NCBI RefSeq assembly: GCF_056712565.1
Contig: NZ_CM160072.1
Length of the DNA stretch: 64,000 nucleotides
Strand: one strand, 5' to 3'
Under the pieces are notes generated by a model, which made no database searches, was not told where the DNA came from, and saw only the letters and a list, made by a program, of their open reading frames with translations. Positions 7,798 to 13,940 of the stretch are shown here, piece after piece. How positions within the stretch are numbered: position 1 is the stretch's first letter; each line of letters starts with the position of its first letter. The translations under genes and the position numbers were made by a program.

Positions 7798-8751
7798 TTA
7801 ACCTATCTCCTGTAACGCATGTCTCTGGCGTTCGACGATATTGGTCCACAAATTGTCTTTATCGTCAGTCCACAAATTAATCAGCAAGGCAAAAAAGCGT
7901 TCAGCTGCCGGAGAAAGCACGGCATCTTTGCGGCGAATAATCCCCAATGTCCGACGTATAACGGGTTCCACCAGTGGGATACCAATAATCGAAGAATAGG
8001 GCGCATGGGGCATTGCCAGACCAGGAAGCGCCGAAATCCCCAGTCCCGCCTCCACCAGCCCTAATGACGTCGAAAGATGACGCACTTCGTAAAACCAGTC
8101 CAGCTTCCAGGGCTTGTCGGCTAGCTGTTGTTCTATCAATAGTCGGTTGCCGCTGGAGGAGCGTACGCCAATCATTTTGTAACCCACTAACTCCTGCCAT
8201 TCTACAAGCTGCTTTTTGGCCAATGGATGGTCACGCCGACAGGCCAGCACGAACGGCTCGTTGACCAGTGGGGTAAAATCAATGGATGAATTTGTGACGT
8301 TGTTCATGTTTATGCCAAAGTCTGATTCGTTACACAGCACCGATTCCATGCAATTATTCGTGCCTTGTTCCAGAATCCGCACTTTAATATTGGGATACAG
8401 CTCATTAAATTTACCGATTGCCAGCGGTAAAAAATAAAATACTGCGGTCGGAATACACGCTAACGTCACCATACCACGATGATAAGCATTCATATCACGA
8501 ATATTAAAAAGCGTTTCATCGAATTTTTTTATTAATTCCCGCGCCTCCGGGAGCAACCTTTTTCCTGCTTTTGTTAACGTAACCTTGCGAGTTGTACGCT
8601 CAAATAGTTGAATGTGTAAATCTTCCTCCATCTTTTTTATTCTTCGCGTTAATGCAGGTTGCGTAATATTGAGTAATTTAGCAGCATTGTTAAATGAACT
8701 GGACTCTGCCAGTATGACAAATGCCTTCATACTTGATAATTCATGCTTCAT
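7798..8751 (-). CDS. ybhD: LysR-family transcriptional regulator
   Basis: ORF 7798..8814; start placed at MKHELSSMKAFV (317 aa); N-terminal HTH; divergent from ybhH. Confidence 0.85.
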   Translation of the reverse strand: MKHELSSMKAFVILAESSSFNNAAKLLNITQPALTRRIKKMEEDLHIQLFERTTRKVTLTKAGKRLLPEARELIKKFDETLFNIRDMNAYHRGMVTLACIPTAVFYFLPLAIGKFNELYPNIKVRILEQGTNNCMESVLCNESDFGINMNNVTNSSIDFTPLVNEPFVLACRRDHPLAKKQLVEWQELVGYKMIGVRSSSGNRLLIEQQLADKPWKLDWFYEVRHLSTSLGLVEAGLGISALPGLAMPHAPYSSIIGIPLVEPVIRRTLGIIRRKDAVLSPAAERFFALLINLWTDDKDNLWTNIVERQRHALQEIG

Positions 8752-8934
8752 TATTACTCCGGAAAATGGAAGCGTCGATTTTGGGTGGCTGGCCATTAAA
8801 AATTTTAACTGCATTTAGCCAACTTAAATTAATGAAAAAATGTTATTAATCGTTGAGCTAAAGTCATTAGAGATGCTTTGCCCTTAATGTAACCATATCG
8901 CAATAAGTTATGTTTTTAAATTGAGGGCATTATT

Positions 8935-9987
8935 ATGAAAAAAATACCCTGCGTGATGATGCGAGGTGGAACCTCGAGGGGCGCGTTCCTGTTAGCGGAA
9001 CATTTACCCGAAGATCAAACGCAGCGCGATAAAATATTGATGGCAATTATGGGTTCCGGTAACGATCTGGAAATTGACGGTATTGGCGGCGGTAATCCGC
9101 TGACCAGTAAAGTCGCCATTATTAGCCGCTCCAGCGATCCGCATGCAGATGTCGATTATCTGTTTGCTCAAGTTATCGTCCATGAGCAACGTGTCGATAC
9201 CACGCCTAACTGCGGCAATATGCTGTCTGGCGTTGGGGCATTCGCCATTGAAAATGGTTTGATTGCAGCGACTTCGCCAGTTACCCGCGTACGTATCCGC
9301 AACGTCAATACGGGTACGTTCATCGAAGCTGATGTGCAAACGCCAAATGGTGTTGTCGAGTACGAGGGTAGCGCCAGAATTGACGGCGTACCGGGTACTG
9401 CCGCACCGGTTGCGCTCACTTTCCTGAATGCCGCCGGAACGAAAACCGGAAAAGTCTTCCCGACTGATAATCAGATTGATTATTTTGACGATGTCCCGGT
9501 GACCTGTATCGATATGGCGATGCCAGTTGTCATTATTCCTGCTGAATATCTGGGAAAAACAGGCTATGAATTACCGGCAGAGCTGGATGCCGACAAAGCA
9601 TTATTAGCCCGCATTGAATCTATCCGTCTACAAGCGGGTAAAGCAATGGGCTTAGGCGATGTCAGTAATATGGTTATCCCTAAACCTGTACTTATTTCTC
9701 CAGCGCAGAAAGGCGGGGCAATTAATGTGCGTTATTTTATGCCGCATTCTTGCCATCGCGCTTTGGCGATAACCGGTGCTATTGCTATTTCCAGTAGTTG
9801 TGCATTGGAAGGTACCGTCACCCGACAAATCGTCCCTTCTGTAGGATACGGCAATATCAATATTGAACACCCCAGTGGTGCGCTCGACGTTCATTTAAGT
9901 AATGAAGGTCAGGATGCCACGACGTTACGCGCATCTGTTATTCGGACGACCAGAAAAATATTTTCCGGTGAAGTTTATCTTCCCTGA
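8935..9987 (+). CDS. ybhH: PrpF-family (methylaconitate isomerase-like) protein
   Basis: 350-aa ORF; PrpF/AcnD-accessory family fold inferred from sequence. Confidence 0.85.
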   Translation: MKKIPCVMMRGGTSRGAFLLAEHLPEDQTQRDKILMAIMGSGNDLEIDGIGGGNPLTSKVAIISRSSDPHADVDYLFAQVIVHEQRVDTTPNCGNMLSGVGAFAIENGLIAATSPVTRVRIRNVNTGTFIEADVQTPNGVVEYEGSARIDGVPGTAAPVALTFLNAAGTKTGKVFPTDNQIDYFDDVPVTCIDMAMPVVIIPAEYLGKTGYELPAELDADKALLARIESIRLQAGKAMGLGDVSNMVIPKPVLISPAQKGGAINVRYFMPHSCHRALAITGAIAISSSCALEGTVTRQIVPSVGYGNINIEHPSGALDVHLSNEGQDATTLRASVIRTTRKIFSGEVYLP

Positions 9988-10062
9988 AAAATTTTGTTGT
10001 CGTGATAATGATACTCAATAAAGGAATTCTGTATGAGTCATACAGAAAGAACAGGATATTAA

Positions 10063-11496: not shown

Positions 11497-11499
11497 ATA

Positions 11500-11626
11500 T
11501 ACTCGTCATACTTCAAGTTGCATGTGCTGCGTCTGCGTTCGCTCACCCCAGTCACTTACTTATGTAAGCTCCTGGGGATTCACTCGCTTGTCGCCTTCCT
11601 GCAACTCGAATTATTTAGAGTATATC
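11500..11626. repeat. ERIC (IRU) intergenic repeat
   Basis: Contains cgctcaccccagtcacttacttatgtaagctcctggggattcac, reverse complement of the ERIC core; imperfect palindrome of about 127 bp. Confidence 0.85.
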
Positions 11627-11678
11627 CATTTATTATCTTTCTGCGCACTTCACGGTGCGCAGATATCTGGAGCATTTG

Positions 11679-13940
11679 ATGATCAAGTTATCTGAAAAAG
11701 GCGTGTTTCTCGCCAGCAATAACGAAATAATTGCCGAAGAACATTTCACCGGCGAAATAAAAAAAGAAGAAGCAAAAAAAGGCACTATTGCCTGGTCTAT
11801 TCTCTCTTCTCATAATACGTCCGGAAATATGGATAAACTTAAAATTAAGTTTGATTCATTAGCCTCTCACGATATTACCTTTGTTGGTATTGTACAGACC
11901 GCTAAAGCGTCCGGTATGGAACGTTTCCCGCTGCCGTATGTGCTGACCAACTGCCATAACTCACTCTGTGCTGTGGGCGGCACCATTAACGGTGATGACC
12001 ATGTTTTTGGTTTATCGGCGGCCCAGCGTTATGGCGGTATTTTTGTGCCACCGCATATTGCGGTCATCCATCAATATATGCGTGAAATGATGGCGGGCGG
12101 CGGCAAAATGATCCTCGGATCAGACAGCCATACCCGTTACGGTGCGTTAGGGACAATGGCGGTTGGCGAGGGCGGCGGCGAGTTGGTAAAACAGCTGCTT
12201 AATGACACCTGGGATATCGACTATCCGGGCGTGGTTGCGGTGCATCTGACCGGAAAACCTGCGCCGTATGTGGGGCCGCAGGATGTGGCGCTGGCTATCA
12301 TCGGTGCCGTGTTCAAAAACGGTTACGTCAAAAACAAAGTGATGGAGTTCGTAGGTCCCGGTGTTGCAGCGCTCTCTACCGATTTCCGTAACAGCGTTGA
12401 CGTGATGACCACTGAAACGACCTGTTTAAGTTCTGTCTGGCAAACCGATGAAGAAGTCCATAACTGGCTGGCGCTGCACGGTCGCGGCCAGGATTACTGC
12501 CAACTTAACCCTCAACCAATGGCGTACTACGATGGCAGCATCAGCGTTGATTTAAGCGCCATCAAACCAATGATTGCGCTGCCATTCCACCCGAGCAACG
12601 TGTATGAAATCGACACGCTGAACCAGAATCTGACCGACATTCTGCGTGAGATTGAAATTGAGTCCGAACGCGTGGCGCACGGTAAAGCCAAACTCTCGCT
12701 GCTGGATAAAGTGGAAAATGGTCGCCTGAAAGTGCAGCAGGGGATTATCGCGGGCTGTTCTGGCGGTAACTACGAAAACGTCATCGCGGCGGCGAATGCG
12801 CTGCGCGGTCAATCCTGCGGCAACGATACCTTCTCGTTGGCGGTTTACCCGTCATCACAGCCGGTGTTTATGGATCTCGCCAAAAAAGGTGTGGTAGCAG
12901 ATTTGATTGGCGCAGGCGCAATCATCAGAACCGCGTTCTGCGGCCCATGCTTTGGTGCGGGCGATACGCCAATCAACAACGGTTTGAGTATTCGCCACAC
13001 CACGCGTAACTTCCCGAACCGCGAAGGCTCTAAGCCAGCTAATGGGCAGATGTCAGCGGTGGCGTTGATGGACGCTCGTTCTATCGCTGCGACTGCGGCA
13101 AACGGTGGCTATTTAACCTCTGCCAGCGAACTCGATTGCTGGGACAACGTGCCGGAGTACGCCTTCGATGTAACGCCGTATAAAAATCGCGTCTATCAAG
13201 GCTTTGTGAAAGGGGCGACCCAGCAACCGCTGATCTACGGACCGAACATCAAAGACTGGCCGGAATTGGGCGCGCTGACTGACAATATCGTCCTCAAAGT
13301 GTGCTCGAAGATCCTCGACGAAGTAACCACCACCGACGAACTGATTCCTTCCGGTGAAACCTCTTCTTATCGTTCAAATCCGATTGGTCTGGCGGAGTTT
13401 ACCCTGTCACGCCGCGATCCAGGTTATGTTGGCAGAAGTAAAGCGACTGCTGAGCTGGAAAATCAGCGTCTGGCGGGAAATGTCAGTGAGCTGGCAGATA
13501 TGTTTGCGCGCATTAAGCAGATTGCTGGTCAGGAACATGTTGATCCGCTGCAAACTGAAATTGGCAGCATGGTTTATGCGGTGAAACCAGGCGATGGTTC
13601 TGCGCGTGAACAGGCGGCGAGTTGTCAGCGTGTGATTGGCGGTCTGGCGAATATTGCCGAGGAGTACGCGACTAAACGCTATCGTTCTAACGTCATCAAC
13701 TGGGGGATGTTACCGCTGCAGATGGCGGAAGTACCGAACTTTGACGTAGGTGATTACATTTATATCCCTGGCATTAAAGCGGCGCTGGATAATCCTGGAA
13801 CGACGTTTAAAGGTTATGTGATCCATGAAGATGCACCGGTAACGGAGATTACGCTCTATATGGAAAGTCTGACTGCTGAAGAGCGCGAGATTATCAAGGC
13901 GGGTAGTTTGATTAACTTCAATAAAAACCGTCAGATGTAA
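11679..13940 (+). CDS. ybhJ: Aconitase-family hydratase (putative)
   Basis: ORF 11655..13940; start placed at MIKLSEKG (753 aa); aconitase-like domain architecture. Confidence 0.85.

Follow-up and report, generated by a model that had tools for sequence, protein, structure and literature searches.

Gene context and sequence suggest that ybhD-ybhHIJ of Escherichia coli is a LysR-controlled module for an aconitate-type tricarboxylate, with a transporter pseudogene in a K1 lineage

The subject of this analysis is the ybhD-ybhHIJ cluster of Escherichia coli, located at positions 7798-13940 of a 64,000-nucleotide stretch of DNA (NCBI RefSeq assembly GCF_056712565.1, contig NZ_CM160072.1), hereafter the window. 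The cluster comprises genes for a LysR-type regulator, a PrpF-family isomerase, a DASS-family anion transporter and an aconitase-family hydratase. We consider it about as probable as not (roughly 0.5) that ybhD-ybhHIJ serves the catabolism of an aconitate-type tricarboxylate under LysR control. That the substrate is specifically trans-aconitate, derived from plants or the gut, is a more tentative proposal. Trans-aconitate is the most economical candidate because a single isomerase suffices for it and because it abounds in grasses and inhibits ordinary aconitase (for the latter two, PMC11495376). In the strain analysed here, the transporter gene ybhI is interrupted by an amber codon, while the regulator gene and both enzyme genes are intact.

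YbhJ retains the catalytic residues of aconitase

The ybhJ gene (11679-13940, plus strand) is intact and encodes an aconitase-family [4Fe-4S] hydratase of 753 residues. The protein matches the Pfam domains Aconitase (PF00330, 296 bits) and Aconitase_C (PF00694, 28 bits) and the NCBIfam entry PRK11413, whereas against the AcnD model it scores 63 bits, with a cut-off of 1420. Structure prediction, which the initial annotation had proposed for the active sites, gave for YbhJ an AlphaFold model (pLDDT 88) with the four-domain aconitase fold, whose top match in the Protein Data Bank (PDB) is mitochondrial aconitase (E 2.5e-47, TM 0.65).

In a profile alignment, YbhJ is about 21% identical to mitochondrial-type aconitase (PDB 7ACN), with which it shares the domain order, the three cluster cysteines, the catalytic Ser/His/Asp/Glu set and the carboxylate-binding arginines; the equivalents of aconitase His101, His147, Asp165, Ser166, His167, Glu262, Arg447, Arg452, Ser642 and Arg644 are all kept. 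Furthermore, a 15-residue motif of YbhJ aligns without gaps to the aconitase segment TTDHISAAGPWLKFR, and the equivalent of Arg580 in YbhJ is therefore Arg565. In an alignment of 74 homologues, all 20 compared aconitase positions are invariant irrespective of genomic context, as are 205 of the 753 positions overall. The invariant residues include, in YbhJ numbering, Cys360, Cys421, Cys424, His93, His131, Asp149, Ser150, His151, Glu246, Arg443, Arg448, Arg565, Ser641 and Arg643. The differences from aconitase run through the whole family; they comprise the pocket changes Gln72 to His, Asp100 to Cys, Asn170 to Tyr and Asn258 to Val as well as Asn446 to Thr and Ser643 to Ala. From these residues and from the gene context described below, we infer that YbhJ is a genuine iron-sulfur aconitase, which would hydrate cis-aconitate to citrate or isocitrate.

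In the literature, YbhJ has been called a catalytically inactive aconitase paralogue, and deletion of ybhJ was found to lower NADPH and peroxide resistance (PMC4054840). If YbhJ were indeed dead as a catalyst, it would have a regulatory or sensing role and the module would have no hydration step. The statement of inactivity reportedly goes back to previous studies of the aconitase activity that remains in E. coli mutants; the operon is apparently repressed under laboratory conditions, which would hide activity. Moreover, no cluster ligand or catalytic residue varies across four phyla, the ratio of nonsynonymous to synonymous substitution rates (dN/dS) is 0.04, and the gene fills the aconitase slot in operons with citrate synthase and isocitrate dehydrogenase (IDH) genes, as described below. 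We thus regard a dead YbhJ as extremely unlikely.

Truly degenerate paralogues do exist in the family: two distant full-length relatives (P0148 and P0154, 37-38% identity), unlike E. coli YbhJ, lack the CGPC cluster cysteines as well as several catalytic residues. Within E. coli, one ybhJ product (P0036, 634 residues) has an in-frame deletion of residues 418-536 (119 residues), which takes the CGPC cluster motif and both arginines, and another (P0029, 648 residues) has an in-frame deletion of about 105 residues from position 479. Several such clusters of deleted YbhJ proteins are found in E. coli, some on up to 27 contigs. Thus, the module is being lost in different ways in different lineages.

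Relatives of YbhJ are encoded beside genes of citrate metabolism

A scan of the genome collection revealed YbhJ relatives of 60-72% identity in several groups, among them Lachnospiraceae, Collinsella, Megasphaera, Synergistales, Erysipelotrichaceae, and rumen and gut metagenome-assembled genomes. Such relatives are frequent in anaerobes of the gut and rumen. Identity at this level across phyla is unusually high, and suggests horizontal spread of the gene among gut organisms. In order to survey the neighbours, open reading frames (ORFs) were called in 80 loci of YbhJ relatives (numbered with the prefix L) and clustered, and the clusters were annotated.

In the first type of locus, the ybhJ-like gene is followed by genes for citrate synthase and an isocitrate-dehydrogenase-like protein, with gaps of 3-30 bp (L020, L032 and L073). 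In L031 and L041, these three genes are present in a divergent arrangement, and only the citrate synthase gene is present in L024 and L026. The representative citrate synthase scores above its NCBIfam cut-off; the dehydrogenase matches IDH models best, at scores below their cut-offs. In the second type, a LysR gene lies divergent to a ybhJ-like gene that is followed by citD-citE-citF-citG-citC (L021 and L053), or, as a variant, the ybhJ-like gene stands between citDEF and citC (L084 and L063). In the third type, exemplified by Oribacterium (L057), a divergent LysR gene is followed by genes for a PrpF-family protein and a CitMHS/MatC transporter, the ybhJ-like gene and citDEFG; in its variant, the order is ybhJ-like gene, PrpF gene and transporter gene, again with a divergent LysR gene (L086 and L089). 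The ybhJ-like gene of Collinsella sits amid chaperone genes. The same active site is therefore found both in the aconitase slot of the oxidative tricarboxylic acid (TCA) branch and beside citrate lyase; chiefly on these grounds, we propose that citrate, aconitate or isocitrate is the substrate of YbhJ.

The same survey bears on the possibility that the module instead handles a different unsaturated branched acid, for example itaconate, citraconate, mesaconate, methylaconitate or dimethylmaleate. The nicotinate fermentation of Eubacterium barkeri, which employs 3-methylitaconate isomerase, dimethylmalate dehydratase and a lyase, has the same design of a PrpF-family isomerase, an aconitase-family hydratase and a lyase. 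In addition, the PrpF-family neighbours of ybhJ-like genes in Bacillota are closest to the 3-methylitaconate isomerase 3G7K (E 7e-100), and one database names an Edwardsiella YbhJ '2,3-dimethylmalate dehydratase large subunit'. However, the arginines that bind the three carboxylates of aconitase, including the Arg580 equivalent, are invariant, the associated lyase genes form the full citrate lyase set citC-D-E-F-G, and the operons with citrate synthase and IDH genes point to citrate. The invariant tricarboxylate-binding and catalytic positions, together with the citrate-gene neighbours, thus argue for aconitate or citrate rather than itaconate or citraconate, and a branched acid of this kind is unlikely. 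The initial annotation had outlined an import, isomerisation and hydration route for an unsaturated tri- or dicarboxylate; the logic of the route is strengthened by the integrity of the module in Klebsiella and Bacillota, while the dicarboxylates itaconate and citraconate are disfavoured.

On two metagenome contigs (L013 and L011), 2-3 different aconitase-family genes are clustered with a LysR gene; a PrpF gene and an isocitrate-dehydrogenase-like gene are additionally present on L013. Anaerobes thus seem to harbour a broader, still unexplored range of aconitase-paralogue pathways.

YbhH is a PrpF-family isomerase whose relatives accompany carboxylate transporters

The ybhH gene (8935-9987, plus strand) is intact and encodes a protein of 350 residues, all of which are covered by the Pfam model PrpF (PF04303, residues 1-350, 559 bits). 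The crystal structure of YbhH has been deposited (6OTV), and its sequence aligns to the protein encoded in the window across all 350 residues (771 bits); residue 70 is His in the window and Arg in 6OTV and K-12. Lys59 and Cys93 of YbhH align with positions altered in the LigU variant structures 6P3H (Lys to Met) and 6P3K (Cys to Ser), and the catalytic Lys/Cys pair is kept. Judged from its gene context, YbhH would interconvert trans- and cis-aconitate.

The current automated name points elsewhere. YbhH scores 515 bits against the NCBIfam 4-oxalomesaconate tautomerase equivalog (NF033377, OMA_tautomer), whose cut-off is 440, and the name given by the Prokaryotic Genome Annotation Pipeline (PGAP) follows; against the PrpF equivalog it scores 187 bits, with a cut-off of 440. 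The closest characterised structure is LigU (E 2.5e-93), the (4E)-oxalomesaconate delta-isomerase, which performs a 1,3-allylic shift on a tricarboxylate. Taken at face value, these matches would make YbhH a true 4-oxalomesaconate isomerase/tautomerase of the GalD/LigU type, acting on a tricarboxylate derived from lignin or tannin, with YbhJ replacing the usual hydratase to give 4-carboxy-4-hydroxy-2-oxoadipate (CHA). RraA-like (aldolase-family) genes near ybhJ-like genes in a few anaerobe loci (L022, L035 and L063) could be read in the same sense, although RraA-like proteins can be oxaloacetate decarboxylases, which fits citrate fermentation.

GalD and LigU belong to the gallate and protocatechuate 4,5-cleavage pathways, and none of the genes of those pathways (the ring-cleavage dioxygenase, the hydratase acting on 4-oxalomesaconate or 2-keto-4-carboxy-3-hexenedioate, or the CHA aldolase) flanks ybhH in E. 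coli, Klebsiella, Citrobacter, Pseudomonas or Dickeya. Instead, genes of the YbhH clade sit with carboxylate transporters, citrate lyase or YbhJ. In Pseudomonas, relatives of 62-64% identity have a divergent LysR gene followed by genes for the isomerase, an SDF transporter, a CitMHS transporter and an OprD-family porin. In Dickeya dadantii, a relative in the same range of identity has a divergent LysR gene followed by genes for the isomerase, an MFS transporter and an FAH-family protein, and then citC-citD-citE-citF. A LysR gene, an isomerase gene and importer genes with no further enzyme would be expected if a single isomerisation gives a central metabolite. These contexts lack gallate genes and resemble that of TarR/TarA/TarB (see below), which leads us to doubt the PGAP name; it is probably an over-annotation for the YbhH clade. 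Since YbhJ relatives with the identical active site are, moreover, encoded in citrate synthase/IDH operons, we consider the oxalomesaconate route quite unlikely. A Pseudomonas chlororaphis "YbhH" hit from a genome-wide association study was set aside as an uninformative paralogue (34% identity).

The module travels as a unit and is conserved within E. coli

In Citrobacter and Intestinirhabdus, the four genes are found at the same site, between pgl and ybhC. Klebsiella aerogenes has the four genes and an extra CitMHS transporter gene at another site, where the module adjoins genes for citrate fermentation: a citAB-like sensor kinase/response regulator pair, oadGAB and a 2HCT citrate carrier. 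The CitMHS-family gene (L004:7683-8945) lies between the DASS gene and ybhJ, and a second LysR gene is located downstream. The module of Edwardsiella tarda has MuF-like phage-related genes and integrase genes only a few kb away. Thus, the LysR/PrpF/transporter/YbhJ module travels as a unit, and it recurs in Bacillota with a different transporter family.

In the window, the divergence of ybhD from ybhH, ybhI and ybhJ, as well as the coordinates and families given to the four genes by the initial annotation, agree with Pfam, NCBIfam and RefSeq. The 6.1-kb stretch 7798-13940 is 100% identical to E. coli ATCC 11775, S88 and many further strains, and at least 80% of it is found in 5,315 of 5,426 complete E. 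coli genomes. RefSeq annotates the identical region of ATCC 11775 in the order pgl, ybhD (minus strand), ybhH, ybhI (pseudo, "internal stop"), ybhJ and ybhC; the order is the same in K-12, where ybhI is intact and labelled "putative tricarboxylate transporter". The dN/dS values against K-12 (ybhD 0.015, ybhH 0.014, ybhI 0.022 and ybhJ 0.041) are like that of the housekeeping neighbour pgl (0.013); the module is thus kept by selection in the species. The three intact genes are under strong purifying selection, and the values indicate that the module is in use within E. coli. The GC content of the module genes (45-51%, against 51.8% for the window) gives no clear sign of recent transfer.

A recent amber mutation interrupts the transporter gene ybhI

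The ybhI gene (10063-11496, plus strand) encodes a DASS-family anion transporter and is a pseudogene in this strain. The amber stop reported by the initial annotation is borne out: comparison with K-12 and the B2 strain LF82, both of which have TGG, reveals a single G>A change at 11003 that converts Trp314 to TAG (codon 314, 11002-11004, plus strand). In the identical ATCC 11775 genome, RefSeq lists the gene as 'pseudo, internal stop'. What does need qualification is the description of the module as disabled at the transporter, as ybhI is broken but ybhD, ybhH and ybhJ are intact.

The reading frame spanning both halves of the DASS transport domain is interrupted by the stop; the two fragments, residues 1-313 and 315-477, jointly span PF00939 (Na_sulph_symp) from 2 to 472 and TIGR00785 from 1 to 444. 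Intact YbhI of K-12 is 33% identical to CitT and 34% identical to TtdT over its full length, and its closest solved structures are those of chloroplast DiT1 and DiT2.1 and of the bacterial DASS-family protein 6WTW; it aligns end to end with DiT1, CitT and TtdT. CitT is a citrate:succinate antiporter and TtdT a tartrate:succinate antiporter. Trp314 is conserved in the alignments with CitT, TtdT, DiT1, DiT2.1 and 6WTW. The stop drops the last 164 residues of YbhI, i.e. its C-terminal third, which in DASS structures includes the second hairpin of the transport domain. Given the removal of this third, we soundly infer that uptake through YbhI is lost in this strain. The stop may, in addition, have a polar effect on ybhJ.

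An exact 57-mer with the TAG allele is present in 74 of the 5,426 complete E. coli genomes. Among the matches listed (60 of the 74), the carriers are K1 extraintestinal pathogenic (ExPEC) or avian pathogenic (APEC) E. coli of the sequence type (ST) 95 type; they include S88, MS7163, "ST95-32", and isolates of serotypes O1:K1:H7, O2:K1:H7 and O2:K1:H4 from human and poultry sources. W314* is the sole difference between the YbhI proteins of this strain and LF82, and downstream of the stop there are no nonsynonymous changes relative to K-12 or LF82. The absence of such changes indicates that the knockout is recent, and long-standing decay of ybhI is rejected on the same grounds.

The survival of intact enzymes in a lineage that lacks the transporter might also be taken to mean that the module runs in reverse or as a housekeeping function. 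In that case, it would make and export trans-aconitate, like TbrA/TbrB of Bacillus thuringiensis, or repair trans-aconitate that is formed spontaneously and inhibits aconitase. DASS exchangers can run either way, PrpF-family aconitate isomerases are reversible, with TbrA and TarA being interchangeable (PMC11495376), and the effects of ybhJ deletion on NADPH and peroxide resistance arise without added substrate (PMC4054840). On the other hand, the layout is a catabolic one, with a divergent LysR gene and the transporter gene inside the operon; relatives in other taxa are linked to citrate lyase and porin genes; and the stop codon is too recent to reveal selection on the enzymes without the transporter. 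We therefore judge reverse or housekeeping operation to be improbable.

The ybhI gene of Edwardsiella tarda (L006:7483-8915, same in L007) carries a frameshift due to a 1-nt deletion that is identical in two genomes, and the PrpF gene and ybhJ are intact; this is a second, independent loss of ybhI. Within ybhI of the window, the minus strand of 10528-10779 gives a sub-threshold Rfam match to the Yersinia antisense small RNA Ysr283 (41 bits, with a gathering score of 58), which is probably due to conserved coding sequence and not to an RNA gene.

YbhD and the regulatory spacer shared with ybhH

The ybhD gene (7798-8751, minus strand; RefSeq coding sequence) encodes a LysR-type regulator of 317 residues, with the Pfam domains HTH_1 (PF00126, 75.7 bits) and LysR_substrate (PF03466, 158.1 bits) and one amino acid difference from K-12. 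An ATG at 8814, which precedes the RefSeq start (8751) by 21 codons, opens the longest ORF, whose product would have 338 residues. This N-terminal extension (8752-8814), which would overlap the conserved spacer, is probably not translated.

The ybhD-ybhH spacer has a mean identity of just 47% across eight enterobacterial species. Its best-conserved block in the eight-spacer alignment is an ATTAAT-N11-ATTAAT dyad of the T-N11-A type at 8828-8850, a candidate YbhD operator. A second block, AAGTCATTAG (8861-8870), is near-invariant in seven of the eight spacers and is possibly an activation site or a promoter element, and a further conserved block, ATGTAACCATA, lies at 8887-8897. Conservation marks these three elements as candidate YbhD and promoter sites. 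The divergent layout with a T-N11-A dyad in the shared spacer is that of LysR-controlled genes.

In a 2022 study that employed ChIP-exo and RNA-seq, deletion of ybhD strongly increased the expression of ybhH, binding of YbhD at ybhH/ybhI was detected by ChIP-exo, and the deletion had a growth phenotype with L-malate, for which the label "L-malate utilisation related" was proposed (PMC9068703). The supplement of that study holds no expression values for ybhI or ybhJ. The phenotype, along with the resemblance of YbhI to plastid 2-oxoglutarate/malate translocators, raises the question of whether the cluster serves the use of L-malate or another C4-dicarboxylate. However, malate requires neither a PrpF-family isomerase nor an aconitase-family enzyme, the genes found beside those of YbhH and YbhJ relatives indicate citrate, and the phenotype is equally explained, and fits well, with malate as the C4-dicarboxylate counter-substrate of the exchanger. 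Malate or C4-dicarboxylate use as the role of the cluster is therefore very unlikely.

An ERIC element separates ybhI from ybhJ

The enterobacterial repetitive intergenic consensus (ERIC) repeat that the initial annotation had placed between ybhI and ybhJ is located at 11497-11625. The sequences of primers ERIC1R and ERIC2 have exact, adjacent matches at 11540-11583, where 0.00-0.01 matches are expected by chance. The element is an imperfect palindrome of about 127 bp, in which a central hairpin is framed by terminal inverted arms of 26 nt (11497-11522 and 11600-11625). For the complete ybhI-ybhJ spacer of 182 nt, the folding energy is -62.8 kcal/mol (z = -6.6), and a sub-threshold Rfam match to V_AS5 extends across 11502-11625.

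An ERIC copy is found at the same site in K-12, LF82 and E. albertii, while none is present in the fetched module loci of Citrobacter, Klebsiella, Edwardsiella and Intestinirhabdus; two Citrobacter species have just 26 or 69 bp between ybhI and ybhJ. From this distribution, the element is an old Escherichia-lineage insertion into a formerly compact operon, and the idea of a strain-specific insertion splitting the genes is rejected. As such, the insertion is not evidence against co-transcription of ybhI and ybhJ.

Between the ERIC element and the ybhJ ribosome-binding site, directly 5' of the latter, lies a perfect 9-bp GC-rich hairpin, TCTGCGCAC-N6-GTGCGCAGA (11640-11663, plus strand), that is identical in K-12. 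With no T-run behind it, the hairpin does not have the form of a typical terminator; possible roles are to mask the ybhJ ribosome-binding site or to stabilise the transcript. Downstream of ybhJ, the spacer to ybhC measures 140 bp in this strain and 233 bp in K-12, and two sub-threshold Rfam matches to naRNA4, an RNA family derived from repetitive extragenic palindromic (REP) sequences, at 13960-14075 suggest REP-type repeats there. In the Rfam search no hit reached its gathering score, and all hits were sub-threshold and repeat-derived.

Relation to known systems

The ybhDHIJ genes form a catalogued E. coli y-gene cluster that resembles the LysR-controlled organic-acid operons tar, ttd and cit. 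The cluster had been called uncharacterized. This does not hold for the control of ybhH by YbhD, which is published, for the structure of YbhH, or for the pseudogene, which is already annotated; it does hold for the substrate, as a literature search found no paper that assigns one to the ybhHIJ module.

TarR-TarA-TarB of Bacillus velezensis FZB42 is a characterised trans-aconitate assimilation system (PMC11495376). Its operon likewise combines a dedicated importer with a PrpF-superfamily isomerase under a divergent LysR regulator, and the product of the system enters central metabolism as cis-aconitate. However, TarB is an MFS importer while YbhI is a DASS protein and a probable exchanger, the tar operon has no aconitase gene while the ybh module has ybhJ, LigU, rather than the PrpF/Mii branch, is the nearer relative of YbhH, and TarR activates while YbhD behaves as a repressor of ybhH. 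The E. coli tartrate genes follow the same plan as ybhDHIJ, with ttdR divergent to ttdA-ttdB-ttdT, which encode an Fe-S hydro-lyase and a DASS antiporter. YbhI is paralogous over its full length to TtdT and to CitT from the citCDEFXG system, but where those systems have tartrate dehydratase or citrate lyase, the ybh module has a PrpF-family isomerase and an aconitase-family hydratase. Such a pairing of an aconitase-family Fe-S enzyme with a PrpF-family isomerase is also seen in AcnD-PrpF of the 2-methylcitrate cycle in Shewanella oneidensis, whose substrates are aconitate-like tricarboxylates (PMC5690661); the ybh module differs in having a transporter and a LysR regulator instead of prpB or prpC neighbours.

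Proposed pathway and its significance

In the proposed pathway, YbhD would repress the operon until an effector appears, in keeping with its published control of ybhH (PMC9068703). YbhI would then import an aconitate isomer and, like its paralogues CitT and TtdT, probably export a C4-dicarboxylate in return. YbhH would shift the double bond to give cis-aconitate, which YbhJ, judging from its context and conserved active site, would hydrate to citrate or isocitrate, and citrate lyase or the TCA cycle would take over the product. In this strain, W314* would remove the uptake step from an otherwise intact set of regulator and enzymes.

Several observations weigh against this pathway. YbhH passes the cut-off of the 4-oxalomesaconate tautomerase equivalog and has LigU as its closest characterised relative; in the rows listed from Table S6 of PMC11495376, a survey of homologues with more than 30% identity to TarA, neighbouring taxa appear at 37-40% identity and E. 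coli (taxid 562) is absent among these rows. For YbhJ, there are the family-wide changes in the pocket and the published statement of inactivity. About 70 of the 77 ybhJ-like loci outside Enterobacterales have no PrpF neighbour, and the PrpF genes of the third locus type in Bacillota are nearer to 3-methylitaconate isomerase/PrpF than to YbhH and are not orthologues; the pairing of PrpF and YbhJ therefore holds at the level of the family, not of the orthologue. Finally, a pattern scan of 7600-14200 found 7 promoter-like sites (9.5 expected) and 10 terminator-like sites (7.7 expected), i.e. chance level, and thus says nothing on operon structure in E. coli. A literature search on the growth of E. 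coli with trans-aconitate gave nothing decisive.

A broader proposal, which we put forward tentatively and hold to be less probable than the aconitate-type module itself, is that YbhJ is a third true aconitase of E. coli, belonging to a clade that gut and rumen bacteria from at least four phyla share through horizontal transfer and in which it would serve as a TCA-branch enzyme or as a feeder of citrate lyase. In this proposal, ybhDHIJ would be an unrecognised route for trans-aconitate fermentation by substrate:dicarboxylate exchange, lost repeatedly in host-adapted pathogens through the ybhI amber codon of ST95 ExPEC/APEC, the ybhI frameshift of Edwardsiella tarda and the in-frame ybhJ deletions of other E. 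coli.

Taken together, the comparative evidence sharpens the vague labels "putative hydratase / isomerase / tricarboxylate transporter" to one testable pathway, with an aconitate isomer entering and citrate leaving, and challenges two existing names, "4-oxalomesaconate tautomerase" for YbhH and "catalytically inactive aconitase paralogue" for YbhJ. The TAG allele is a natural ybhI knockout confined, among the matches listed, to a K1 ExPEC/APEC lineage; it can serve as a lineage marker and makes the dispensability of a nutrient route outside the gut addressable. The genes ybhDHIJ are four among the remaining function-unknown genes of the best-studied bacterium. If the proposed pathway is true, a nutrient route for a plant acid would be added to the gut ecology of E. 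coli, and the likely housekeeping aconitase of many Lachnospiraceae and Collinsella would be identified.

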